Positions 1 to 59,880 of a DNA stretch of 59,880 bases are shown here, piece by piece (the stretch's first letter is position 1; each line of letters begins with the position of its first letter). The notes under the pieces are model-generated. The model saw only the letters and a list, made by a program, of their open reading frames with translations, was not told the origin of the DNA and ran no database searches. Source of the DNA: Escherichia phage vB_Eco_SLUR75; the sequence record LR025197.1. One strand, written 5' to 3'. The position numbers and the translations under genes are program-made.

Positions 1-127
1 CCCTTATCAGTCGCTACACGGGCGAGCCGTTAGCTGTGTTCCATGCAGCTTAAGCTATAACGCACACAGCGCCGCGCTAGCGAGCTAATGTACATAGGTA
101 ATGGTAATGCATTAGCTCGGGCGAAAC
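1..127. repeat. Terminal redundancy, identical to 59754..59880
   Basis: Exact 127-nt identity between window start and end. 127 is the maximal k-mer of common de Bruijn assemblers, so the simplest reading is a circular-contig overlap rather than a biological terminal repeat. Confidence 0.85.
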
Positions 128-489
128 AGGCGCACAGCGTTGCGCACAGCTCGCACAGCGCACACAGACCCACGCAGGCCCAGCCGCGCGACCCGACCCA
201 TCCTTTTCCAGGTACTTGGATCGCTGGGGCGTGCCTTATCCATCCTGATAGTAAGTCCTTGCCTAAATCTCACCTGTCACATTCCTATCCACCTACATCC
301 ATGACCCCCCACCTACCTTCTTTTTGAATATATTGCGCTCATCCTTTCTAAATATATGGATTTTGGTAGTAAATTCTGAGTCGTCAACGTATAATTCGTC
401 TTGTAGCTGCTCCATAGCTATCATCTTTAAGCGGATGCAACCAATTTCTATCAGTTCACACCTGTTTTTAGAGCATCGAGGAGGTATTT

Positions 490-741
490 ATGTGCGACTC
501 CAGTGCAAGCGCTGCACCCAGCACCTCCAGCAATGTGGTTACAGAGGTAAATGCAATGCGATTAGGCCCATATCGCGGGTATTATGGTCGGGCAGCATGG
601 AATGACGCTACTCAACGTTTTGAAGGCTGGATTATCTGTCCGGAACGTGTTAAATTTCATTCCGTAAAAGAGAAAAATATCGTTCTTAATTTTCAAAAAT
701 GTGTCACTAAATATGTAGAGGAGCAAGAAGAATGCGTGTAA
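490..741 (+). CDS. Hypothetical early protein (83 aa)
   Basis: ATG preceded by strong RBS GAGGAGG; first gene after the 5' noncoding region. Confidence 0.5.
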   Translation: MCDSSASAAPSTSSNVVTEVNAMRLGPYRGYYGRAAWNDATQRFEGWIICPERVKFHSVKEKNIVLNFQKCVTKYVEEQEECV

Positions 742-974
742 AAGACGAGCAAAAGACAGTTGACTACTTCGGAATGCAAATTGTTGTTCCGGAATGGGTT
801 AAATGGCTTGCTGTCGATGGTGACGGCAAATTATTCGGTTATGAATGTGAGCCCGACATTTTAGTTAATGAAGATTGGGATGAATGGTACAGTGAAGAAG
901 GTAAATGCCGCTGCATTACAGAAGTCATCCTTGAAGAAGAACATTGGTCACAAACCTTAGTGGAGCTTTTTTAA
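732..974 (+). CDS. Small protein, paralog family member A (80 aa)
   Basis: Shares WLAVDGDGKLFGYECEP and C-terminal HWSQTLVEL motifs with ORFs 1316..1618 and 40076..40330. Confidence 0.55.
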   Translation: MRVKDEQKTVDYFGMQIVVPEWVKWLAVDGDGKLFGYECEPDILVNEDWDEWYSEEGKCRCITEVILEEEHWSQTLVELF

Positions 975-1264
975 TGCACGTAGAAGATATTGTTGAAGGT
1001 AAAGAGTATCGTTTACTGACCGATATTGGTGGTGTCGGATATACTCCGGATGATGCAGCTTGTTTTAATGTCCTTCCGCAAGGTGCTATCGTGACAGTTA
1101 ACAAGGTTGTTACCGATTTATACAGCGTTCATGACGGCAGATGGCCACATGCAGTTATTGTTACCTTCGGTAAAGATGGTTATGTGGACCTTGATGGCGG
1201 AGACGACACTTACGAAGTCGCTTATACAGGTCTGGTGAGTCCCAATTTCCTGGAAGAAGTATAA
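974..1264 (+). CDS. Hypothetical early protein (96 aa)
   Basis: Internal ATG (M11 of track ORF 944..1264) overlapping the upstream stop as TAATG; start uncertain. Confidence 0.45.
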   Translation: MHVEDIVEGKEYRLLTDIGGVGYTPDDAACFNVLPQGAIVTVNKVVTDLYSVHDGRWPHAVIVTFGKDGYVDLDGGDDTYEVAYTGLVSPNFLEEV

Positions 1265-1315
1265 TTATCAATCTATAATGGGCTCTACGGAGCCCTTAAT
1301 TATCTGGAGGTTGTT

Positions 1316-1618
1316 ATGCTGTATTTAGGAATGGACGAAACTGGACACGCGATCCCTTCTGTTAACAAGGAGACGCGAGTATTTACAGACTATTACGGGT
1401 CTGCTGTCCCTGTTGAGCCCTGGGCTAACTTTATCGCTGTAGACGCAGACGGTAAAGTACATTGTTATGACGCCAAACCTTCTTGCTATGAATCTGGTAA
1501 GCAATGGATGCTTGGCGTATACGGTTTGCATGTTCGCTACTGCGGCGAAGTTGACATTGAAGGTGTGGACTGGCGCGATACGCTAAGGGAAATCAAAGAA
1601 TATAGGCTTAACCCATGA
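1316..1618 (+). CDS. Small protein, paralog family member B (100 aa)
   Basis: RBS GGAGG; motifs FIAVDADGKVHCYDAKP and GVDWRDTLREI shared with paralogs A and C. Confidence 0.55.
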   Translation: MLYLGMDETGHAIPSVNKETRVFTDYYGSAVPVEPWANFIAVDADGKVHCYDAKPSCYESGKQWMLGVYGLHVRYCGEVDIEGVDWRDTLREIKEYRLNP

Positions 1619-1839
1619 AAATATTCATGATACTAGGCGTTATAGTTGCCGCTTTCGTTGTATTTGCAATTGTAGACTCTAAAGAAATGGAGCGGCAAAA
1701 CTGCCAACGCACTGGTAACAGCCGTGAGGATATCATTTGGCAATATATTTACGATGCAAAAGGTAATGTTATGTCAATGTATCCTCAGGTTATTACTGAG
1801 TATGAATATAAATGCAATGACCGTAACAGGTGGAGATAA
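1615..1839 (+). CDS. Small membrane protein (74 aa)
   Basis: ATGA start/stop overlap with the upstream gene; N-terminal hydrophobic helix ILGVIVAAFVVFAIV. Confidence 0.5.
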   Translation: MKIFMILGVIVAAFVVFAIVDSKEMERQNCQRTGNSREDIIWQYIYDAKGNVMSMYPQVITEYEYKCNDRNRWR

Positions 1840-1841
1840 TA

Positions 1842-2321
1842 ATGGAAGTTACTGAAGCTGCTAAACGCATGGTAAAATTCTATGTCGGTTCTGATGCACC
1901 TTTAATTCGCGCTTTTGGTCAGGAACTTTATGTTTTCCAGGGCGATCGAGAGGAGGCTGAAGAAATTGCTCAGGCAATCCTCGATATGCAAGCAAAAGCG
2001 GATCGTGCGGAAGCCCTTGAAGCCGAATGGCGTGCTCAGGAAGAACGTGCCGAAAATGCTGAAACTAACCTTGTCGACATGCGTGCTGCTGAGCACGCTC
2101 TATCTGATTCTTATATTCGTTTGCGTCAAATTGTTGGTGCAATGAATCCGCCTGGTGTGAGCAGCGAAGAGGTGTGGGCGCATACCGAGAAGAAGGCTCA
2201 AGAGTTGCGTGATCGCTGCGAAGCTCTGGAAGCTATAGCAAAGGACTTCTTGCGTCGTAATAAATATGGTCCTTTGTTCTATCGTGATTTGTATAACCGT
2301 TTTAAGGAGATTGTGAAATGA
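1842..2321 (+). CDS. Hypothetical protein, acidic coiled-coil (159 aa)
   Basis: ATG at M5 of the track ORF (track start 1830 is GTG), preceded by GGTGGAG. Confidence 0.5.
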   Translation: MEVTEAAKRMVKFYVGSDAPLIRAFGQELYVFQGDREEAEEIAQAILDMQAKADRAEALEAEWRAQEERAENAETNLVDMRAAEHALSDSYIRLRQIVGAMNPPGVSSEEVWAHTEKKAQELRDRCEALEAIAKDFLRRNKYGPLFYRDLYNRFKEIVK

Positions 2322-2587
2322 TTACTGCTCAAGAAGCTCGTGAATTAAGCGATAAGCTGGATATTAGCGAAGATATTGAATTTATCAGTGACAGCATTCG
2401 CGTAGCTGCTACAAAGGGATACAATAAAGTATCACTGGTAACCAAATACGGCGCTGTTGGCAATCCTGACACTCAAGACCCGACCACTATGAAGATTGCT
2501 AAATGGTTAGCTGATTCTGGTTTTACGGTGTTATATTATCCTTCAATGGACCAACGTGATAACGAGCGTACTGAGGTAGCATGGTGA
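2318..2587 (+). CDS. Hypothetical protein (89 aa)
   Basis: ATGA overlap with the upstream stop (translational coupling). Confidence 0.5.
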   Translation: MITAQEARELSDKLDISEDIEFISDSIRVAATKGYNKVSLVTKYGAVGNPDTQDPTTMKIAKWLADSGFTVLYYPSMDQRDNERTEVAW

Positions 2588-2654
2588 TTGAAGAAAATAT
2601 CAAATATTGGAAAGGCTTTATTGACGAAATGTTGAAACCATTGGAGAAGAAATA

Positions 2655-3047
2655 ATGCTATTAGTCGTCACCGGAGGTCGAGATTTTAAGCATGTGGAGT
2701 ATATTTATGCTCAATTGGATAAGCTGCATATGCAAAGAAGGATAACCACACTTCGCCACGGTGACGCTGACGGTGTTGACCGCATTTGCGCACAGTGGGC
2801 AGAGCGCAACGGTATTAAGACAGAAGCGTTCCCTGCCCCGTGGGACAATCTTTCCTTACCAAATACCAAGATACGGTATAACGCCAAGGGTGCTTATAAT
2901 GCACAAGCTGGCGCATACCGTAACCAATTAATGCTGAATACTGATCCTAAACCAGATCACGCTATTGTGTTTCCTGGCGGAGCTGGTACTATGGATATGT
3001 ACAGACGGATTAAAGCATCCGGTATTCCTTATACTTTAGCGGAGTAA
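2655..3047 (+). CDS. SLOG/LOG-like Rossmann-fold protein (130 aa)
   Basis: VVTGGRD near N-terminus, HGDADGVD, and VFPGGAGTMD resembling the LOG-family PGGxGT motif. Confidence 0.4.
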   Translation: MLLVVTGGRDFKHVEYIYAQLDKLHMQRRITTLRHGDADGVDRICAQWAERNGIKTEAFPAPWDNLSLPNTKIRYNAKGAYNAQAGAYRNQLMLNTDPKPDHAIVFPGGAGTMDMYRRIKASGIPYTLAE

Positions 3048-3050
3048 ATA

Positions 3051-3521
3051 ATGGCTGACGTTAAAACTATTGTTGATGCAATGGACGAGTCCAAAGACTG
3101 CCAACTGAAGAAGTCGTTTGAAGTAAAACAGGTTACAGAGACTCAGTTGGTCTGTAATTTTGCGCGTTATTGTGGACTGGGGCGCGGGAAAGACTGGAAC
3201 GGGCTTATTGTTATGCCCACATCGCAGATTCTCGTTTACGTCCGCAATATTGTAGAAGATCTTTTGCGTCTTCAAATAGATATTGGTGACGTAGAAATTA
3301 ACATGACTGCGAGCTCTACCATTGTGGTTAAATGGCAGTCGGGCGAGACACTGCGTTTGGAAGCGTGCCATTGTGCTAAGAGCCTACACCACCTGCGCGG
3401 TTGTCATTACCAGTTCGTTGGGTTTGTACATCCGCAAGGGTTAAGCGAGCGTACGGCGCTTGTAGCGCGTTTGCTGCTGCGTCCTTATAATAACGAGCCG
3501 GAAGTTATATACGAGGCATAA
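3051..3521 (+). CDS. Hypothetical protein (156 aa)
   Basis: ORF packed directly after the upstream gene; no recognisable motif. Confidence 0.5.
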   Translation: MADVKTIVDAMDESKDCQLKKSFEVKQVTETQLVCNFARYCGLGRGKDWNGLIVMPTSQILVYVRNIVEDLLRLQIDIGDVEINMTASSTIVVKWQSGETLRLEACHCAKSLHHLRGCHYQFVGFVHPQGLSERTALVARLLLRPYNNEPEVIYEA

Positions 3522-3522
3522 A

Positions 3523-3948
3523 ATGTCAGTAAATTTTGTCAAACAGCCAACTTTAAATACATGCGTTTCTGCGTGTTTGGCAATGATCCTTAATAAACCT
3601 GTCGAAAAGGTCATTGAGGAATTTCATAGTCGTTATTATAACAACTGGGAAATCACTATCAGCGAATATTTGACTAAAAACGGCGTCCCGCATCATTGTT
3701 CAGAAGGTGGTGGGCGTGAAACTTTGCATATGGGAGGTTTGTTCCTGTGCACGGTGCCAAGTCTTAATATTCCTGGCGCATTGCACCAGATTGTGATTGA
3801 TATGACAGATCACAAGTTTATTGTGCATGATCCAATTAAAGGATGGGAAGGTAAAAAGTTCTATGTTGGTCCGGATCAAGATCCTGAAGAGCCTGGAGCT
3901 TTTATCATTCATACTTGGGTCAAAGACGTTGAAATCCTGCCTTATTAA
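3523..3948 (+). CDS. Putative papain-fold cysteine peptidase, C39-like (141 aa)
   Basis: N-terminal QPTLNTCVSACLAMIL resembles the C39 catalytic Cys signature; candidate His in HKFIVHDP. Confidence 0.4.
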   Translation: MSVNFVKQPTLNTCVSACLAMILNKPVEKVIEEFHSRYYNNWEITISEYLTKNGVPHHCSEGGGRETLHMGGLFLCTVPSLNIPGALHQIVIDMTDHKFIVHDPIKGWEGKKFYVGPDQDPEEPGAFIIHTWVKDVEILPY

Positions 3949-4196: not shown

Positions 4197-4657
4197 CCAC
4201 AATTGCGTTCGATGGAAAAGTATTAGCTGCGGACCGTGGAGTTATGCGCGGGGAAGCTGTGACTGCTTATAAGAAAGTTCATAGCGTGAATGGACATCGT
4301 GGACGGTTTTTACTTGGCTTGTGCGGTTTGACGGCATTTACCGATCAGGTGTTGCGTTATTTTAATAGCGCGGAACCTGTTAAGTTCCCTGATATTAAAC
4401 TTTACAGTAAAGATGATGATTACGGGCAAACTTGCGGTCTTGCTGTCACTCCGGAAGGTACTTGCCATTTTATTTATAATGATGGTACTTTGAGCGAGCC
4501 CATGCTGGATGGATGGGGATCTGAGGGTAGCGGTTGTGTGTTTGCCGCTGGTGCATTAGCCGCTGGTGCAAGCGCAAGCGAAGCTATTGAGCTGGCAATT
4601 AAACACACCACATGCGCATTCCTGGGAGTTGATACAATATCATTTGAGGGTTTTTAA
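4193..4657 (+). CDS. HslV/proteasome-beta-like Ntn-hydrolase (154 aa)
   Basis: Begins MTTIAFDGKVLAAD (Thr directly after Met, as in HslV TTIVSV...); Gly/Ala-rich GSEGSGCVFAAGALAAG...EAIELAI resembles the HslV C-terminal region. Confidence 0.45.
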   Translation: MTTIAFDGKVLAADRGVMRGEAVTAYKKVHSVNGHRGRFLLGLCGLTAFTDQVLRYFNSAEPVKFPDIKLYSKDDDYGQTCGLAVTPEGTCHFIYNDGTLSEPMLDGWGSEGSGCVFAAGALAAGASASEAIELAIKHTTCAFLGVDTISFEGF

Positions 4658-4918
4658 ATGACTACATTCAGTCACCTGATCCCACCTGCTTATCATAGTA
4701 AGGTAGTTGACCACGGGACGCATGTTGTAATTGGTGGCGAAATCTTTATCACAGATAACGAGGAAATCGCCATTGCAATTATTGACAGCACTCAGCATGA
4801 CTTTATGGTTATCCTGCAACACGAACCAGATAACTTCACTTTTTACTCCAGCTACGGGGTCGATAAAGGTGGAAAAAGCCTTGTTGCTTTCTACATTAAC
4901 GACTGGTTTGACGGGTAA
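4658..4918 (+). CDS. Hypothetical protein (86 aa)
   Basis: ATG immediately after the upstream stop. Confidence 0.45.
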   Translation: MTTFSHLIPPAYHSKVVDHGTHVVIGGEIFITDNEEIAIAIIDSTQHDFMVILQHEPDNFTFYSSYGVDKGGKSLVAFYINDWFDG

Positions 4919-6439: not shown

Positions 6440-6459
6440 CAATAAGAAAGGGGGCTTCC

Positions 6460-7017
6460 ATGAACGGGGCAAGTCAAGAGCAATATGATCGTGACTGGAC
6501 GAATTACATCCAGTATGCAAATAGCTTGTCCGCTGAAGAGATGGCAATACGTGACAAAGTTGTTGCTGAGTACATGTTCGACTACAATTGGACTAACGCT
6601 TGCATGAGATGCGGGTTCAATGCTATGTTTGCACAGGAGCTTGGCCAACGCTTTGCCACGGACTGTTATGTTCGATGGAAGCTCAAGGAGATTGAAAGAT
6701 CCCGTGTTCAACGTACTTCTGAGCAAGCTAACATTGAAGCAGACCTTGAGCGTCAGCATATCATTGAAGCATTAAAACGTGAAGCTCATTATACAGGACC
6801 GGGATCTTCTCAAGCTGCTAGAGTCGCCGCATTGGGCAAGCTTGCACAAATTTATGATTTGGATGCTCCCAAGAAGGCTAAGATTGATGTTACTAACAGA
6901 GGCGGCGTAATGATAGTCCCTGCTGTAGCAAATATTGACGAATGGGAAAAAACTGCATCCGAGTCTCAACAACGACTAGTTAAAGAGACTGAAGATGGAG
7001 CTAAACCGACAACCTGA
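6460..7017 (+). CDS. Putative terminase small subunit (185 aa)
   Basis: Size and position immediately upstream of, and overlapping, the large terminase gene. Confidence 0.45.
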   Translation: MNGASQEQYDRDWTNYIQYANSLSAEEMAIRDKVVAEYMFDYNWTNACMRCGFNAMFAQELGQRFATDCYVRWKLKEIERSRVQRTSEQANIEADLERQHIIEALKREAHYTGPGSSQAARVAALGKLAQIYDLDAPKKAKIDVTNRGGVMIVPAVANIDEWEKTASESQQRLVKETEDGAKPTT

Positions 7018-8554
7018 TAACATGCCGCGAGTCGTCTGGAAACCACATCCAGGTTCACAGACACTCGCTCTATCCTGCCCCGCTGATATTATCCTATACC
7101 ACGGAACTCGCGGTCCTGGAAAAACGGACTGCCAGCTTATGCGTTTCCGTAAGAATGTTGGTGTAGGGTACGGTAAATTTTGGAAGGGTATTATATTCGA
7201 CCGTGAATATAAAAATCTTGATGACCTTGTAACTAAATCCCAGCGTTGGTTTCCTGAATTTAAAGACGGGGCTAAATTCCTTAGCTCTAAGTCTGATTAT
7301 AAATGGGTTTGGCCTACAGGTGAAGAGCTACTGTTCCGCGTTGCTTGTAAAGAAAAGGATTACTGGTCTTATCACGGTCACGAATACCCATTTATCGGAT
7401 GGAACGAATTAACAAAATATCCGGACGGGCGTTTGTTTGAAGCTATGATGTCCTGTAACCGTTCATCTTTCTTACCAGAAGATAACCCAATTATTAATCC
7501 AGATGGTACGGTCACATATTTACCGGATATCCCTCTTGAAGTGTTTGCTACCAGTAACCCGTTTGGTGCGGGGCATAACTGGGTTAAGAAACGCTTCATT
7601 GACGCTGCACCGATGGGTAAAATACTCAGGAAGACTACGCGAGTGTTTAACCCGAGGACGCAGAAAGACGAAGATGTGGTTACGACGCAATGCCATATCT
7701 TTGGTTCGTACCGTGAAAACAAAAACCTAAGTCCAAAATATATTGCAGAACTTATGTCTATCACAGACCCGAACAAGCGTGCTGCATGGTTGGGCGGGAG
7801 CTGGGATATTACATCCGGTGGTATGTTCGATGATCTGTGGCGTAGCACTGTTCACAAAGTACGACCATTCCCGATTCCAGCGAGTTGGAAGATTACACGT
7901 TCTTTCGACTGGGGTTCTTCAAAACCGTTCTCTGTCGGTTGGTGGGCTATTAGTGATGGTTCGGATGTTGTGCGTGAAGATGGCACTACATTCTCCACGG
8001 TCCGCGGTGACCTGTTTAGGATTAACGAATGGTATGGGACCAACGGTAAAACAAACGAAGGTCTACATTTGCTGGACTCAGAAATTGCAAGCGGTATACT
8101 GGAGCGGGAATTGGCCTGGGGTATACACGATCGTGTAGTTCCTGGTCCTGCGGATAACTCCATTTGGGATCTGGAGAACAATAACTCCACCGCTGCAACA
8201 ATGGCGAAGAAAATTCGTCTTAACGGGAAGTTATACGACGGTATACATTGGAAGCGCAGTGATAAGTCTGCTGGGTCACGTAAACGGGGCTGGCAGAAAA
8301 TGCGTGAGTTCCTTAAAGCTGCACTGCGGGAAGATGCGAACGGTAAACCTTTGCCCGGTCCGCGCGAGAATCCAGCAATGTACATTTTTGATAACTGCAA
8401 CTATTTCTTTGAGCTGGTTCCAAGTCTACCTCGCGATGAAGTAGATCAGGACGACGTTGATACGGAATGTGAAGACCATATGGGTGATGAAGTTCGTTAT
8501 ATGGTTCTGGATCAAGCTGTTTATACAGGTGTTGGCAAAACTATCGGTATTTAA
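6995..8554 (+). CDS. Terminase large subunit (519 aa)
   Basis: N-terminal P-loop-like HGTRGPGKTD, size typical of TerL, directly upstream of portal. Alternative start at M10 (7022). Confidence 0.8.
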   Translation: MELNRQPDNMPRVVWKPHPGSQTLALSCPADIILYHGTRGPGKTDCQLMRFRKNVGVGYGKFWKGIIFDREYKNLDDLVTKSQRWFPEFKDGAKFLSSKSDYKWVWPTGEELLFRVACKEKDYWSYHGHEYPFIGWNELTKYPDGRLFEAMMSCNRSSFLPEDNPIINPDGTVTYLPDIPLEVFATSNPFGAGHNWVKKRFIDAAPMGKILRKTTRVFNPRTQKDEDVVTTQCHIFGSYRENKNLSPKYIAELMSITDPNKRAAWLGGSWDITSGGMFDDLWRSTVHKVRPFPIPASWKITRSFDWGSSKPFSVGWWAISDGSDVVREDGTTFSTVRGDLFRINEWYGTNGKTNEGLHLLDSEIASGILERELAWGIHDRVVPGPADNSIWDLENNNSTAATMAKKIRLNGKLYDGIHWKRSDKSAGSRKRGWQKMREFLKAALREDANGKPLPGPRENPAMYIFDNCNYFFELVPSLPRDEVDQDDVDTECEDHMGDEVRYMVLDQAVYTGVGKTIGI

Positions 8555-10157: not shown

Positions 10158-11030
10158 ATGAAAAAGAGTTCTGTAGCTATTAGTGTTGGTATGGCTTTAA
10201 TTAATCCACGCGCTCGCGGTGAAGGTGATGTGGAACTGGAATACGAATATGCATCTGAGGAAGAGATCCCGGCAGAGTTTGCAACTCTTTACGCAGAGCA
10301 GGGCGGTAAATACGTTCTTGCAAAAGTTAAAGGTGTAGCCCCTGCTGATAGCGTTCGTCGTCTGGAAAGTGCGTTAGCTAAAGAACGTAACGACCATCGT
10401 CAGGTGAAGCAACAGATTAGCGCACTTGGGCGTCCGGTTGAAGAAGTCCTTGCGGACCTTGATCGTATCCCTCAACTGGAAGCTGCCGCTAACGGTAAAG
10501 GTACTCCGGAAGACATCGAAAAGATGGTTAAAGCCCGTCTTGCTCCGCTCGAGCGTCAATTGCAAACTGTGGCAGCTGAACGCGATTCCGTTAAGCAGGA
10601 AATTGAAGGCTACCGCACTCGCGAAACTAAAGCGAAAATTAAAGACGCAGTTATTGCCGCTGCATCCGGTGCTAAGCTGCGTCCGTCTGCTATCGAAGAT
10701 GCGGTGACTTATGCACAGTTGCAAATGACAGTCGACGAAAACGGCAATGTGGTTACGAAAGATGGGGCGGGTGTAACTCCATACCTAACCCCGGCGGATT
10801 GGCTTAACGAGATCCTCCCGAAACGTCCTCACTGGGTTGAGGGTTCTGCTGGTGGCGGTGCATCTGGTCCGGGTGCTGGCGGTCATCACGGTGAAGACCC
10901 ATACAGTCACGACGGTTGGAACATCTCTAAGCAGATGAATCTCTGGAAAACTAATCAATCTTTAGCTAAACGCTTAGCTGAAAAGAATGGCGTAGATCCG
11001 CTGAAGCCTGTACGTCCTGCTAAGAAATAA
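10158..11030 (+). CDS. Putative scaffolding protein (290 aa)
   Basis: Charged coiled-coil protein between portal and major capsid genes. Confidence 0.55.
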   Translation: MKKSSVAISVGMALINPRARGEGDVELEYEYASEEEIPAEFATLYAEQGGKYVLAKVKGVAPADSVRRLESALAKERNDHRQVKQQISALGRPVEEVLADLDRIPQLEAAANGKGTPEDIEKMVKARLAPLERQLQTVAAERDSVKQEIEGYRTRETKAKIKDAVIAAASGAKLRPSAIEDAVTYAQLQMTVDENGNVVTKDGAGVTPYLTPADWLNEILPKRPHWVEGSAGGGASGPGAGGHHGEDPYSHDGWNISKQMNLWKTNQSLAKRLAEKNGVDPLKPVRPAKK

Positions 11031-28000: not shown

Positions 28001-28472
28001 TGGTTGGATATACTACGGTCAGGTAAATACAGATGGAAGCCGAACATTTCAGGTAAACGGAACTGTCGGTTGTACTAGTGTTGTTCAAAGCTCAGACCGA
28101 GATCTTAAAGACAACATTAAGACTATTGCAGATGCAACTAAAGCATTGCGTAAAATGAATGGCTACACATATACTCTCAAGGAAGATGGTTTACCCTATG
28201 CTGGTGTAATCGCTCAAGAAGTTATGGAAGCTCTACCTGAAGCGGTTAGCAGTTTCACAAAGCATGAGTATATGGAAGGCCAAGATGGAGAAGGTAATGA
28301 TACAAGATATGATCTTGGAAAACGTTATCTTAATGTAGACTACTCCGCGGTAACTGGTCTTCTGGTTCAGGTTTGTCGTGAAGCAGATGACCGCATTACA
28401 AAACTTGAAACTGAAGTTGAGGAACTCAAAAAATTAGTTGCAACACTTGTTAATAAAGAACCACTACCATAA
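25086..28472 (+). CDS. Tail fiber with C-terminal intramolecular chaperone, peptidase S74-like (1128 aa)
   Basis: C-terminal SDRDLKDNIKTI...GYTYTLKEDG...YAGVIAQEV matches the self-cleaving chaperone motif; internal duplicated IPLAI(A/S)QGGTGAV motif. ATG at M5 of track ORF (track start 25074 is GTG). Confidence 0.8.
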   Translation: MATRLRGTLVDGLNKPIINATVALLAKGNSLTVLSGSEAIFKTSATGTYDITVQTGYYKVIIGPQGVEPYKAGEIAIYADSKEGTLNNYLTTWAPEELTPEVITQVKDLVAQAETAKNASSTSATKSEQERVKAEAAAKKAEDTANGMKASIGLTTAPRHVANITVEPTAFLGFIRIVRSTTVGYPDIASSENVLAGFISAMDGTPGYVGVFVGDFTGTVYTYRWTKNVGAVWWKQVNYSTVNRYTQLNAETNFTNQLGNAKLLIDNNKVWGAYDNDNKRYIPLAIAQGGTGAVNVNDALENFGLGRNSAPRFKHLDLDNASNSTQAASGILNGYLRDSSGVQRTKHRLYSEIKSDGKAWLTMQIYSDESTQKTLGYNIDGDFQIVRNFIGQSLQLSDLTTTHKNLQIDRFKQLSAGTRVYGGPADERYFEVHTGAWGVYNVTEKKWIPLAISQGGTGAVTVADAKKNLLIPDGGLDSATRVDKPAGAEDAKYYPIIISQPSGYDGTYLTEIEMSTPSRSAAQSPNSNILRAWIRSAGWSDKGTVGFGNFFAYDSKEVAILCIRGTSRGQYPHNAVYVKGDAFPVYIRKTVGSTITVPTSDWSADPNASDKCVYKWGITGDLDGIGDEYGCRNILNFVKGLNGFYCNDYFRDAGGNAYLKDGMNYGGDIKLQLRKLEINGNLTAGNAITAFGPTVANNTFVSQLTNADSSQALHQSEFRAGESGGQIVVRDMSAVANHKFFNFNLDGSFSPPNGLLSSTGVDWNSQINTVNKFYGIAGQVNSAENNVVYGGIHVGFSGNYAFQLAGRNNKASFRTFEAGTPGPWMRLITDQYADFKVPIFANKNGEAITIKSTVDDNSESGYIAGRNNANTRLWYIGKSGPQETVVIRNDMNGNQILLRDGAGDISLDTKDGNKVVFAKASNFRLVNSNGKYTRLVTSGSSTHAISMDNWGTSARPTVFECKYEDYSTSANVGWIYYGQVNTDGSRTFQVNGTVGCTSVVQSSDRDLKDNIKTIADATKALRKMNGYTYTLKEDGLPYAGVIAQEVMEALPEAVSSFTKHEYMEGQDGEGNDTRYDLGKRYLNVDYSAVTGLLVQVCREADDRITKLETEVEELKKLVATLVNKEPLP

Positions 28473-53149: not shown

Positions 53150-55490
53150 ATTCCTCTTCTCCTAAGTTTGCCATAATACCTTCAACATCTTGCGTAATGC
53201 GCCAAGCTGCGCCAGTGAATCCCAGTTTGATAGTCTCCTCCCGTGTTACCGGAACAAGAGCACCCATAGCAACCATCTCCTTGATCGTAGACTCAATTGC
53301 TGCGGACAATCCGTGGTGATAGTTTTTAAACGCGGACTTACTTGCAAGACGAGTAGTAATATCACCCCGCGTGATTATGCCTTCCTTACGCAGATCTACA
53401 CGTTTAACTTTCACCCAATCTTTAGTTAGATAATTCACACAAACCTGGCACATAGTACGGATACGAGCTTCGTCATTAGTACCGATACCCCCACTATGCC
53501 ATTCCTTCATAATGATATCCTGTCCATGACGCACAAAGTCCAAGGCCCATTGAACATGATAGGTCTGCACAACCGGATTGATCCAGTTTTCTCCCACAGC
53601 TAACAGGGCGGATAGACGTAACACCTTCAGGTGCGCACGGTTCCACGGCTGACGGATTGCTTCGTCTTTGGTTGCGTTAATATTACGGTCACATTCGTCG
53701 TTAAACTGATCACATAATGCTTCCGCATCCGGGCTAAACTGCACTTCAATACTTTGATGCTTTGCCATTGCGACTAAGGTGTGGTTAACAAGATGGCACA
53801 CCATATCCCGCAAATGCTGATCCATTGTAGTCTGCTGGTTCTTGTTTAAAGGTGGTCGATCCCCTTCATAGCGGACAACATGGAAACGGGATAAGAAACC
53901 ATCCTCCATCATTTCACGCGTCAACGCTTCAAAAAACGTGTCCGGTGTCGTTTCGCCCATGATGCTATAGGCCACACCTTGTTGAGCTTCCGTATTATTA
54001 GCCTTATCAGAATAAGACATACCACCGACAATAGACATCTGACCAGACTTTTGATAAACATCGGTGAGGTCGTTCTTGAAGCTTTGCATCGGTGAACCTG
54101 CTGGCGCTGTTGCCATTGCTTTAATAATCTTACCAAACTCACCGTTCAAGTTGATAAAAGATTGTTTGTCCGCAAAAGATTTACGCAACGCAGAGCCGGA
54201 AGCGCATCGGTCAAAAGATACAAAGCTATGAATCTGCGGAAACGGTTCCTGAAGCTGGCTAACTATATTAGATAGACCACTGTTCAACGTTTCTTTACCA
54301 ACACCAGAACGAGCAATAAGGACAAAATATCCATTAAGACCGGATTGAGGAATCTGCCAAACCTTCCCGCATACGCCAGCCATAAATCCTAGTGCTGTCA
54401 CAATAGAAATTTCTTTCACTGGTCGGACGGATGCTTTGTAGATGTACTTCGCAAGCTCCCCAGCAAGTCCCGGCGGCCAGTCAATAGCGGTTGCATCAAT
54501 AGATGTACTTTCTGCAACTACTGTCTGCCCCTGTGTTGTTTCAACAGTTACGGGCATTTCCGCTACCTGCTGCATTGCACTGTGTGCCGCTTGCATACGG
54601 GCAGCATAATCCCGCGCCAGCGCCGCTACGTTTTCCTGGGCAATGCGCTCACGCTCCATGCGACCGCGACACATACGCAAGCAACGGTCAATATGAACAT
54701 TGTTCTTATTAGCCTTCTCACGTTTGCCCAGTGCGCTATAACGGAACAGACGACGACATTGCTCATTACTTTCCGTGTAAAATGCATACATAGAAATAAG
54801 GGCAAGGTCTGCTTCAGACTGGGAAGGGAATCCCATTTCAACCCATTCACCATTAAATAACCGCGCATACTTATCACCGTTATCTGCTTCAAGTGCGCGC
54901 TGATGAATAGTTGCATCATCTTCTACCGGATCTTTTTCTACCAGTTCAATTTCATATGTCTTGCGCTGAAGATCAATTTCATTCACAAGCATCGTAAGGT
55001 AATGATCACGTTCTGCAACTGGTTTGTTGTAGACGGGATTGCCCGTGCAGATAATAAAACGCTCCTGACTATAAACCTCGACACCATCACGTCGACGACC
55101 TTTACCGATGTTACCTCTTAACCACAGGTGAACACCCAAGCCTGAGCGGCTCACTTCGGTGTAAGTATCGAACGCAGTCATGATCTGTTCGAAGCGGCGC
55201 AACTGCTCCGGCGTCGTGTGCTTCTTGGGATCAGGTTCATTGGTTGCATTCTTCACATCCAGGTCGATGCAGGTGAACGGGTCTTGTGCAGTAAGCACGA
55301 ATCCAATATAAGGTTTATTGAAATGAGCGGCGCAACCTTTGGCAGCTTCAAACGTCATAAGCATATCCGGATCGGTAACGTCCGCCGCCATCAAACGTCC
55401 AATATCGCTATCCCATACCAACGGCTTTTTATCCGCATCGGCGACCGCCCATTGTGGGAAAGCTTTAATTTCAGCGGGAAACAGTTCCAT
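53148..55490 (-). CDS. Primase-polymerase / helicase fusion (780 aa)
   Basis: N-terminal archaeo-eukaryotic-primase-like motifs CIDLDVKN and GLGVHLWLRGN; central P-loop LIARSGVGKETL. Confidence 0.6.
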   Translation of the reverse strand: MELFPAEIKAFPQWAVADADKKPLVWDSDIGRLMAADVTDPDMLMTFEAAKGCAAHFNKPYIGFVLTAQDPFTCIDLDVKNATNEPDPKKHTTPEQLRRFEQIMTAFDTYTEVSRSGLGVHLWLRGNIGKGRRRDGVEVYSQERFIICTGNPVYNKPVAERDHYLTMLVNEIDLQRKTYEIELVEKDPVEDDATIHQRALEADNGDKYARLFNGEWVEMGFPSQSEADLALISMYAFYTESNEQCRRLFRYSALGKREKANKNNVHIDRCLRMCRGRMERERIAQENVAALARDYAARMQAAHSAMQQVAEMPVTVETTQGQTVVAESTSIDATAIDWPPGLAGELAKYIYKASVRPVKEISIVTALGFMAGVCGKVWQIPQSGLNGYFVLIARSGVGKETLNSGLSNIVSQLQEPFPQIHSFVSFDRCASGSALRKSFADKQSFINLNGEFGKIIKAMATAPAGSPMQSFKNDLTDVYQKSGQMSIVGGMSYSDKANNTEAQQGVAYSIMGETTPDTFFEALTREMMEDGFLSRFHVVRYEGDRPPLNKNQQTTMDQHLRDMVCHLVNHTLVAMAKHQSIEVQFSPDAEALCDQFNDECDRNINATKDEAIRQPWNRAHLKVLRLSALLAVGENWINPVVQTYHVQWALDFVRHGQDIIMKEWHSGGIGTNDEARIRTMCQVCVNYLTKDWVKVKRVDLRKEGIITRGDITTRLASKSAFKNYHHGLSAAIESTIKEMVAMGALVPVTREETIKLGFTGAAWRITQDVEGIMANLGEEE

Positions 55491-55765: not shown

Positions 55766-56494
55766 TTATTGCGGAGTTGTGATAATATGGTTACCAACTT
55801 CTAACATAACGTCTTGAGGCTCCCGTCCCTGTCTTAAGCTAATGAGCCAATTATCAATATTAGGAAGAATATTTTTAGCCTGCTCAGAATCCCTGTATAG
55901 TGCAAGATCTACCCATTGAGCCCCAAGCTTCACACGGATAGCGGTAGCGGTTTCGTAATGGTGGAGGGAACACGTAGGCCAGCGACCTCGATTGTCCCAG
56001 TCCTGGATATCGCCGCTCCGGCGCATTCTGTACCAGCGATGGGTTAGTTTATCCATTTCCTTATCCGTCAAAGCATCCCCTTTGAGCAAAGCTTGGCGCT
56101 GTATCCAGGCCTTGAGCTCGGCGTTTTCCTTGCGCCCGGTTTTACCCTTAACTACTTTTACCTTCAGTGCTTCCTCATAGGGATCGTTACCCTTGCCCAT
56201 GTGGTAATTGAATTTGCCCGTATAGCTGCGAAGCTCTTTGGCGTCCAGTTCATGTCCCAGCTTATCGCTAACCCATGCAAGGAAAGCCGTACGCTCTGCA
56301 TCCAGTTTACCCGCTTTTTGTCTTACCGCTTTTTTAACTGGTTGCTCCACATCTTCGTTGAAGTAATCCTCCACCATAGCAAGCGCCTGAGCCTTAGTGG
56401 GTACGCCCCGTAACCGCGAGCACGCTTGCACGACCCAGGCAGCAAAGCACAAATCCTTGACCACAGTTTTAGATGTAATAGTTTCTTCGCTCAT
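55766..56494 (-). CDS. Hypothetical protein, possibly replication-associated (242 aa)
   Basis: Strong RBS AGGAGG; directly downstream of the iteron/AT-rich region. Confidence 0.5.
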   Translation of the reverse strand: MSEETITSKTVVKDLCFAAWVVQACSRLRGVPTKAQALAMVEDYFNEDVEQPVKKAVRQKAGKLDAERTAFLAWVSDKLGHELDAKELRSYTGKFNYHMGKGNDPYEEALKVKVVKGKTGRKENAELKAWIQRQALLKGDALTDKEMDKLTHRWYRMRRSGDIQDWDNRGRWPTCSLHHYETATAIRVKLGAQWVDLALYRDSEQAKNILPNIDNWLISLRQGREPQDVMLEVGNHIITTPQ

Positions 56495-57163
56495 AAATCC
56501 TCCTAGTGAACTGGTAATGCCACTATAAAACAGCTATTAGCTATTTGCAAGAATTGTTTTAATATAGTGCTTAGTGGCGTACATAGTGGGCAAAAACGTG
56601 TATAGTACGCCGTTACTGGCTTTGTAAAAGTTTGCCACTATAAACCACTATCCCACTATTCACTAATTTTTTATTTTTACACAGAGCAAAGTTTATAAGT
56701 TTACGGTTTCCCCCTTATTACCCCGTTTTCAAACAAAGAATTAGTAGTAGTAGTGAAAACGTGTAAATGCCACTATCACTACTATACTATTAATTATCTG
56801 AAAAAAGTTGGGAGTATACCCCTATAAACTTATAAACTTTCAGTCAACTAACTAAAATAAAACTAATTAAACTAATATTAATAATAACTATAAATATATA
56901 TAAAATAAGGATTTATTATTATTGTATATAGTACCTATTGGTATTATGTGATGAGTTTATAGTCACTAAATAAACTCTATAAATTTTAATAAACCTGAAC
57001 GGATGCAGATCAAAAATGAGAAGTCAAGTGCTTTTGAGGGAAATTTATTGAACTATTGTGATCGGGAGGTATATCAAGCTATAATGCGCTTAATCGCGGG
57101 ATATTGGAGGAGGACTTTATTGCGCGGTTAACCGGACCAGTAGGAGGGCTGGCCCGGAGTAGT
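56495..57163. promoter_or_regulatory. Candidate replication origin / control region: CCACTAT iterons plus AT-rich tract
   Basis: At least five direct and two inverted copies of CCACTAT within about 56520..56776, two copies of AAACGTGTA, then about 200 bp of extreme AT-richness (about 56800..57000). Confidence 0.45.
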
Positions 57164-57540: not shown

Positions 57541-58122
57541 TTATGCGTCCAGTCCGTTATATTTGCGCCAGGCGTAGAACTGAATGGCAACCGTTGTCCC
57601 GTTGTAAGAAGGCATTGCAGCTTTCATTTCTTTCAGCTCCGGCGTGCGGCCCAGTTCGGCTAAAAGTTTATCGCCCATTGCCCACACTTCGGCGGTTTTT
57701 CCTTTCAGGGGCTTGCGAGCGCCATTTTTGAAATCACAGCGAGCAGCTTTTGCATCCTGTTTTGGCGCGGCAGCTTTTGGCTCTTCAATTTTGATTTCAG
57801 AAACCTGCGTGGCAGCTTTTGCGTGTTTCATATCTTTCTCTTCCTCCTGCTCCAGAGCTTCGAGGCAGCTTTTGACGATTTCCGGATTTACCATCGGGCG
57901 CAGTACCGAGACGCTGGCAGCTGGCGCGGCGGTCGGTGCCGGGACTTTCTGCTCCGGCTGTTGCGCTTTTTTATGGTCGCGCAGCACCTGAAGCACTTCT
58001 TTCTCGACGATGTAAAAACCAATCTCGTCCTGATGGATAAGCTGTTCGTGTGCGTCGCGTGCAACCTGGCCCCAGCGGGTCTTAAGGGCGCGGCGTGCAT
58101 TCGTTTTCATGGTGTAGCGCAT
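57541..58122 (-). CDS. Hypothetical protein sharing C-terminal domain with the KA-rich protein (193 aa)
   Basis: ATG at M27 of track ORF (track start is GTG); C-terminal AEVWAMGDKLLAELG...YAWRKYNG parallels RAWALMDQISATLG...YARWKKFNG of ORF 41107..41919. Confidence 0.5.
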   Translation of the reverse strand: MRYTMKTNARRALKTRWGQVARDAHEQLIHQDEIGFYIVEKEVLQVLRDHKKAQQPEQKVPAPTAAPAASVSVLRPMVNPEIVKSCLEALEQEEEKDMKHAKAATQVSEIKIEEPKAAAPKQDAKAARCDFKNGARKPLKGKTAEVWAMGDKLLAELGRTPELKEMKAAMPSYNGTTVAIQFYAWRKYNGLDA

Positions 58123-58758: not shown

Positions 58759-59376
58759 CGTGATATTGAATAGGCCAAAAGTGCTATTTTAGAATTGTTT
58801 TGTATCTATAGTAGTACACATGCAGCTACGTAAAAAGTTGGCGCCAACAATACTGCAAACGATATAGATTTTGTGTGCGTCTTCCATAGTGCGGATAACG
58901 TCTATTATGTTAAATAGCTAAGTTGTTGATTTATGGTATGCCCTGCAATGCATTGGATAGTTAAGTGGTCTAAGCTATTGTTTTAAAAGGAGTTAAAATT
59001 TTGCTGTCTGCCAGCTGTAAAACGTTATGTCATTTACTGACATAAAATGTTGTCACCGAAATAGCACGTTTGGCCTAGACACAGATCAGGTCATGCGGTA
59101 CTATATAGTCAAAGGAAAGGGAAGCAGAAGTTGCAAAGTACCAATCCCGAGTAGTAAAGGTTAGGGAAAGCTGAATAGCTAAAGTACCTAACAGGTAGTC
59201 GGAAGGTGAATCGTCCGGATGAAAAAGGCCGGCAAGTGTTGAGACAAGGGCACGTTGAGTAACTCCCGAACAGGGGGCCTCCAAGACACCTTCTCCGGTC
59301 CCGCGGGATCCGGGACCTTCCGGGACTACCAACCAAAGAAGCAACAAAATAGTAGACAAAGCGAGAGGTAGGTATC
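58759..59376. promoter_or_regulatory. Divergent control region between the two arms
   Basis: About 620 bp without convincing ORFs: AT-rich proximal part, then purine-rich GC-rich segment with hairpin GGTCCCGCGGGATCCGGGACC. Confidence 0.45.
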
Positions 59377-59520
59377 ATGGTCCGCAAATACACGCTTACA
59401 CGCGCACAGCACGCGTTATTATTGCAGGTCATGCGCATGGAGTACGAAGAGACTACATGGGCGCAAGCTATGCAGACAGGGCGCGAGTTCTACGCGCAAC
59501 TAATAGCACAAAATGCCTAG
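59377..59520 (+). CDS. Candidate small ORF (47 aa)
   Basis: ATG preceded by GAGAGGTAGG; below the ORF-track size cutoff. Confidence 0.3.
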   Translation: MVRKYTLTRAQHALLLQVMRMEYEETTWAQAMQTGREFYAQLIAQNA

Positions 59521-59578
59521 ACAACATGATCGGTCTGGTGGATACTACACACATCAACCAAACAACGGGGTAAACAAA

Positions 59579-59806
59579 ATGCGTAGTTTCAAATGTGTAA
59601 GCGTAAATGCTACTGGTAACGGTCTGTTCACGGCAGGTAATGTATATGACTTCAACATGGAAAGTTATAAAGACACAACGCTTACAGGTGTAATGTTCGG
59701 TGGCGCTCGTGTCGTTCGCTGCCATTTAAACAAGAACACGGAAAATGAATATACCCTTATCAGTCGCTACACGGGCGAGCCGTTAGCTGTGTTCCATGCA
59801 GCTTAA
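59579..59806 (+). CDS. Hypothetical protein spanning the terminal-repeat junction (75 aa)
   Basis: ATG at M23 of track ORF 59513..59806; its last 53 nt lie inside the 127-nt repeat, so a partial copy occupies window positions 1..53. Confidence 0.4.
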   Translation: MRSFKCVSVNATGNGLFTAGNVYDFNMESYKDTTLTGVMFGGARVVRCHLNKNTENEYTLISRYTGEPLAVFHAA

Positions 59807-59880
59807 GCTATAACGCACACAGCGCCGCGCTAGCGAGCTAATGTACATAGGTAATGGTAATGCATTAGCTCGGGCGAAAC
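59754..59880. repeat. Terminal redundancy, identical to 1..127
   Basis: Same 127-nt sequence as the window start. Confidence 0.85.

Follow-up and report, generated by a model that had tools for sequence, protein, structure and literature searches.

Introduction

Overlaps of 127 bp between the two ends of circular phage contigs have been described as a k-mer artefact of the SPAdes assembler (PMC5923482, PMC7372960, PMC8104045); one of these three papers is the announcement of phage U136B (PMC8104045). The point at which a circular genome is opened may also be a matter of choice. Opening just before terS, which corresponds to position 6460 of the sequence analyzed here, is a stated convention that many GenBank relatives of this phage follow (PMC8594841, PMC4342423).

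Physical ends have been described for phages of the subfamily Queuovirinae. For the Nonagvirus 9g, run-off sequencing placed the terminase cut at nt 28243, within the non-coding DNA that precedes the rightward operon. Restriction mapping of 9g implied that its terminal repeat is about 3.0-3.2 kb long and "might be edited out" during assembly (PMC5567051). The Queuovirinae phage iggy of Pseudomonas has a 1,091-bp repeat, which was defined with nanopore reads (PMC10484667).

We analyzed a stretch of 59,880 nucleotides, designated the window, that represents an E. coli siphophage of the genus Seuratvirus, subfamily Queuovirinae. The 127-bp duplication at its two ends is not a biological feature, and the unit genome is 59,753 bp after one copy is trimmed.

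Results

Terminal duplication of the window

Positions 1..127 and 59754..59880 were identical, base for base, as an earlier note on this DNA had claimed. Direct sequence comparison showed that 127 bases is the longest prefix equal to a suffix, and that the bases immediately outside the two copies differ. No other repeated 25-mer was found in the 59,880-base window; the end pair is thus its sole long repeat. The chance of a 127-base identity is negligible (4^-127). The copy at 1..127 is the redundant one, assigned to the k=127 overlap of a circular contig. The other copy, at 59754..59880, is continuous with position 59753 on its left and, once the sequence is circularized, with position 128 on its right. 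The overlap length equals a k used by common assemblers, 127 being the largest k of SPAdes.

Both ends of the window matched about 33 phage records with 86-98% identity. Nearly all were E. coli Seuratvirus, and they included Seurat, CAjan, slur01, Greed and the BASEL phages WildeMaa, KurtStettler and SeppeHuegi. The genes for the small (6460..7017, + strand) and large (TerL; 6995..8554, + strand) terminase subunits were assigned from PHROG and Pfam matches. They are located about 6.3 kb downstream of the junction, and the portal gene follows the TerL gene. TerL was 100% identical to that of slur01, at least 99% identical to that of 30 records, 67% identical to that of Nonagvirus and 63% identical to that of Pseudomonas phage PCCM_PaP002. 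The 67% identity to Nonagvirus places it in the same lineage as the TerL of phages with mapped ends. No match by sequence was found between TerL and solved structures.

A conserved gene spans the junction

The earlier note had drawn an open reading frame, 59579..59806, across the junction. This frame is present, with an ATG at 59579, a TAA at 59804-59806 and a product of 75 aa. It lies entirely within the tail of the window, yet the left edge of the duplication (59753|59754) is inside it. Because this edge interrupts a conserved coding gene at the second base of codon 59, we counted it in favor of an artefact. An upstream ATG at 59513 is preferred by the annotators and gene callers of relatives (bas23_0079 in WildeMaa), and it gives a hypothetical protein of 97 aa (59513..59806, + strand).

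The junction gene is real. At least 20 public contigs encode the exact 97-aa protein at an internal position, and in every case the 83-aa gene that begins at position 490 of the window comes next, about 435 nt further on. Among 14 relatives, the variable sites at codon positions 1, 2 and 3 of 59513..59803 numbered 10, 11 and 24, which is a coding pattern; the corresponding numbers for the next gene (490..738) were 19, 11 and 33. The product of the junction gene had no Pfam or PHROG family match. Read directly, bases 1..53 (+ strand) are a truncated duplicate of the 3' end of this gene, comprising its last 17 codons and the stop codon, and the window does start inside a gene, as previously noted.

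The duplicated sequence is single and internal in relatives

The 127-mer was internal and present in one copy in each of 15 related loci from GenBank, IMG/VR, ENA and Logan. One alignment crossed both of its boundaries in 14 of these loci, and the remaining locus was divergent. In WildeMaa, the match to the window tail stopped at 53798 and the match to the window head began at 53672, so that exactly 127 bases were shared. The same arithmetic was obtained for slur01, Greed, KurtStettler, OddieOddie and KS_A8. In base-level alignments, WildeMaa and slur01 ran gap-free from the window tail through one copy of the 127-mer to position 128 and onward. The sequence joined after trimming one copy is continuous in independent genomes.

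Genuine terminal repeats are also collapsed by assemblers. For this reason a single copy in relatives cannot, by itself, exclude a true terminal repeat, and we therefore looked into the real ends of related phages.

Ends of Nonagvirus genomes

Exact terminal repeats are present in the GenBank records of HdK1 (3,367 bp) and HdSG1 (3,363 bp). Their right edges are identical (..GCCGCGGGGCGGCTC|TTAGATC..) and coincide to the base with the terminase cut of 9g, and their left edges are within 3 nt of each other. Judged from these sequences, two defined ends would be a better fit than headful termination, the reading put forward by the authors of the 9g study. Nonagvirus thus has a defined end on which public records and run-off sequencing agree to the base, a result of modest use to phage genomics.

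No sequence similarity was found between the 9g cut region and the non-coding DNA of this window, and synteny narrowed the equivalent of the 9g pac region only to a span of about 4.8 kb that runs through the junction. The 12-bp core motif of the 9g pac repeats, SRYCRCGGGRCG, was also considered as a guide and rejected. It had one exact match, GACCACGGGACG, at 4709-4720, inside an 86-aa gene (4658..4918), which is at chance level: by our own estimate from the degeneracy of the pattern, about 0.2 exact matches are expected. Allowing one mismatch gave 5 matches against 2.9 expected. A cryptic copy of the pac repeat within a gene is likewise reported for 9g (PMC5567051).

A long terminal repeat is predicted from ECP2304

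The Seuratvirus ECP2304 (OR880647.1) has an exact direct terminal repeat of 3,695 bp, positions 1-3695 of the record being identical to 59896-63590. It is the only Seuratvirus record with two copies of the region, and both edges of its repeat are in non-coding DNA. In base-level alignments, its right edge (..CCTT|ATCCATCCTGATAG..) aligned to 237|238 of the window. This point is the start of a block, ATCCATCCTGATAGTAAGT, that was conserved in all seven aligned genomes. The homologous right-edge sequence, ..GCCTT|ATCCATCCTGATAGTAAGT, is present in the window, and by this homology the right physical end of the virion DNA is predicted within 231..256, at 237|238 (..GTGCCTT|ATCCATCCTGATAGTAAGT).

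The left edge of the ECP2304 repeat extrapolates to about position 56773. We infer that the biological repeat of this phage would be about 3.2 kb long, extending from about 56.8 kb through the junction to position 237, with one copy in the assembly. The junction would then lie inside a predicted repeat that makes up 5.4% of the genome, 110 nt from its predicted right edge, a mild coincidence if breaks are random.

The extrapolated left edge falls in a gene-free, AT-rich region (56495..57163) beside the replication genes. This region reaches 92% AT (56850-56899). Motifs of the TGCCACTATAAA/CCACTAT type recur in it, and it contains a 16-nt inverted repeat with perfect arms (56688-56703 / 56825-56840). 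From its sequence it looks like an origin. It is variable in relatives (79-99% identity, some alignments being partial), and it is a hot spot of contig ends in other assemblies, several public contigs ending in or near it.

Non-coding DNA around the junction

The right boundary of the overlap, 127|128, falls within a non-coding region of 436 nt (54..489), designated region B, which separates the junction gene from the gene for the 83-aa product (490..741). Region B was 84.9-96.3% identical in the related loci, 10 of the 15 aligning over all 436 nt, and its conservation equaled that of the flanking genes. Left of about 233 the relatives split into two sequence classes, which converge at 237|238. 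Four repeats of about 17 nt and of the CGCACACAGCG type are located at 61-77, 129-145, 159-175 and 173-189, and a perfect 10-bp hairpin (81-90/110-119) lies among them. The segment 128-230 is 68% GC, and 231-330 is C-rich and G-poor. Region B is a candidate for the site of terminase recognition or for a regulatory role. In the junction region, no Rfam family match was found, a terminator scan returned no terminator-like site, and the RNA fold energy was no better than that of shuffled sequences (z = -0.4).

BASEL records annotate a coding sequence of 71 aa (bas23_0080; 4461..4676 in the coordinates of its own locus) or 58 aa (10329..10505, likewise in the coordinates of its own locus) inside region B. 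The frame in the window, 88..327, showed variable sites of 15, 16 and 14 at codon positions 1, 2 and 3 among the 14 relatives. This pattern is flat and the length of the frame differs (79, 71 or 58 aa), so 88..327 is probably not a gene but a spurious call; no protein family match was found for it.

A second non-coding region, region A (58759-59376), was considered as a pac candidate and rejected, as WildeMaa is the only relative that has it. It is a mosaic region between the leftward and rightward gene blocks; in most of the other relatives its place is taken by two small genes, of 87 and 94 aa. A 19-nt inverted repeat (58771-58789 / 59059-59077; 95% complementary, 269 nt apart) brackets region A, which holds a GC-rich palindromic cluster (59292-59315) with two copies of TCCGGGAC (59309 and 59319).

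Opening points of other assemblies

None of the examined contigs and records of relatives was cut at the junction of this window. The SPAdes contig NODE_91_length_59804 ends at the equivalent of 57121, where an ENA scaffold of equal length reads through with 100% identity. Other genome-length contigs were cut at about 57140, at 57987 and within the gene 55766..56494. GenBank relatives were cut at 6459/6460, 6276, 6347, 57725 and scattered other positions, and further records were cut far from the junction, at the equivalents of about 18.4, 36.9, 45.1 and 47.6 kb of the window. Other assemblies of the same or near-identical genomes thus break at positions of their own.

Ends of contigs or records inside the predicted repeat zone were found at 56902, 57121, about 57140, 57235, 57725, 57987 and about 58950, in a search biased by selection, as only contig ends lying no more than 6-10 kb from either query gene were visible. 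We considered the ends clustered at 56.9-58.0 kb as virion ends and did not adopt them beyond a weak lead: one is a remnant of adapter sequence, the zone is both mosaic and rich in AT, and visibility was biased to the query genes.

The MEGAHIT contig k111_20613 of ENA assembly ERZ27238624 begins with the Nextera mosaic-end adapter AGATGTGTATAAGAGACAG (positions 1-19), fused to phage sequence at the equivalent of 56921. Untrimmed Nextera adapter thus remains in this deposited assembly.

Discussion

The earlier note had held an assembly closure artifact likelier than a biological terminal repeat. Our results support this view through the single copy and continuity in relatives, the other positions at which related assemblies are cut, and the literature on SPAdes. 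We consider it almost certain that the 127-bp identity is the overlap of a k=127 assembler on a circular contig. A de Bruijn graph assembler running at k=127, such as SPAdes, metaSPAdes or another, would leave this overlap on a contig that closes on itself, as the contig would be written from one 127-mer node through the whole cycle until that node is reached again. The cycle would close owing to the terminally repetitive DNA of this Seuratvirus phage. Homology to ECP2304, HdK1, HdSG1 and 9g makes a direct terminal repeat of about 3.2 kb most likely for its virion DNA, and reads from both copies would collapse into one. The artefact, the single copy and the continuity are shown by the comparisons above. 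The attribution to k=127 draws on the overlap length and on the literature on such overlaps; which program was used, and exactly how far the biological repeat extends, are likewise stated here as probable.

Exact repeats at both ends of a record are also what a genuine short direct terminal repeat of the T7 or SP6 type, rightly kept on a linear assembly, would look like. Such a repeat would be compatible with a single copy in relatives, as assemblers collapse repeats, and the subfamily does use terminal repeats. However, the length is exactly the commonest maximal k, and the left boundary splits a codon of a conserved gene instead of falling at a conserved, normally intergenic position. The repeats recorded in the lineage are not of comparable length, being 1,091 bp in iggy, about 3.0-3.2 kb in 9g, 3,363 bp in HdSG1, 3,367 bp in HdK1 and 3,695 bp in ECP2304, and no recorded edge in the lineage corresponds to 59754 or 127. 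Moreover, a 127-bp repeat in a de Bruijn graph would not yield a linear contig bounded by that repeat. We regard this explanation as exceedingly improbable. The overlap could also be an artefact whose position is not arbitrary, if reads stopping at the physical right end of the long repeat (predicted at 237|238), or a shift in depth close to that end, had created a graph branch next to which the cycle was then opened. The junction does lie inside the predicted repeat, at a distance from the predicted right edge (110 nt) smaller than k, and the ends of other contigs and records likewise fall in the predicted repeat zone. Nevertheless, the node 1..127 ends at 127, not 237, and the k-mer adjoining the predicted end is a different one. 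As for the other contig ends, they were seen only near the query genes, one of them is the Nextera adapter remnant, and an AT-rich, strain-mosaic zone alone breaks metagenome graphs; other records are cut far away, at positions between about 18.4 and 47.6 kb. A non-arbitrary position is therefore quite unlikely in our view.

The mode of packaging is a separate matter, as the 127-bp overlap is an artefact whether the phage packages by headful or has a defined long repeat. Pac-headful packaging would give circularly permuted virion DNA with no fixed ends, and the circle would close for that reason and not through a defined long repeat. This mode was inferred for Seurat from a comparison of TerL (PMC4342423), and the authors of the 9g study read their own data as pac plus headful (PMC5567051). 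OddieOddie is described as "circularized upon assembly" with "possible headful", and PhageTerm gave no reorientation for the Seuratvirus phiHS1. Against this stand the exact repeats of HdK1 and HdSG1, with identical right edges and nearly coincident left edges that point to two defined ends, the repeat of iggy defined by nanopore reads, and the location of both ECP2304 repeat edges in non-coding DNA. We consider purely headful packaging somewhat unlikely. A tentative proposal, which we rate a little higher and still short of an even chance, is that Seuratvirus virions, including those of this phage, have a direct terminal repeat with defined ends, about 3.2-3.7 kb long, and are not simply pac-headful as inferred for Seurat. 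Under this proposal the right end would be at 237|238 (..CCTT|ATCCATCCTGATAG) and the left end near 56.8 kb, within the AT-rich, gene-free DNA. Terminase would recognize the CGCACAG repeats and hairpin of region B, and the point at which the contig was opened would be a footprint of the right end and not a random one.

The artefact has practical consequences. The genome is 59,753 bp long, not 59,880 bp, and bases 1-53 yield a false gene fragment that is a hazard for annotation. Tools that score a direct terminal repeat as a sign of a complete genome would correctly call this one complete, but on mistaken grounds. The 127-mer should not be reported as a terminal repeat of the phage or used for inferring a packaging strategy. 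The biology of interest adjoins the duplication: a conserved non-coding region in which terminase probably cuts, and a probably collapsed terminal repeat with a length of about 3 kb. The corresponding end can be predicted in this genome from one Seuratvirus record.

Compared with the k=127 overlaps that SPAdes leaves on circular phage contigs, the duplication described here shares the exact identity of the first and last 127 bases, their lossless removal and the continuity of the joined sequence in relatives; we detected no difference. In T7- and SP6-like phages, whose terminase is of a different lineage, the boundaries of the repeats are conserved and intergenic. The likeness to these phages consists in an exact direct repeat, of 100-500 bp in their case, at both ends of a linear record, whereas here the boundary splits a codon and the length is an assembler parameter. 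With the Nonagvirus phages 9g, HdK1 and HdSG1, the window shares the subfamily (67% TerL identity), the genome layout and a non-coding region upstream of the rightward operon leading to the terminase genes; in contrast, their repeat is 3.0-3.4 kb and not 127 bp, and its right edge is a mapped terminase cut. Ends of this kind are what we would expect for the phage of this window. ECP2304 belongs to the same genus and is about 91-92% identical in the shared parts, but it has the other sequence class of region B and is without clear homology to the window from about 58.8 kb to 233. Its repeat covers the homologue of about 56.8 kb to position 237, which includes the point at which this window is opened.
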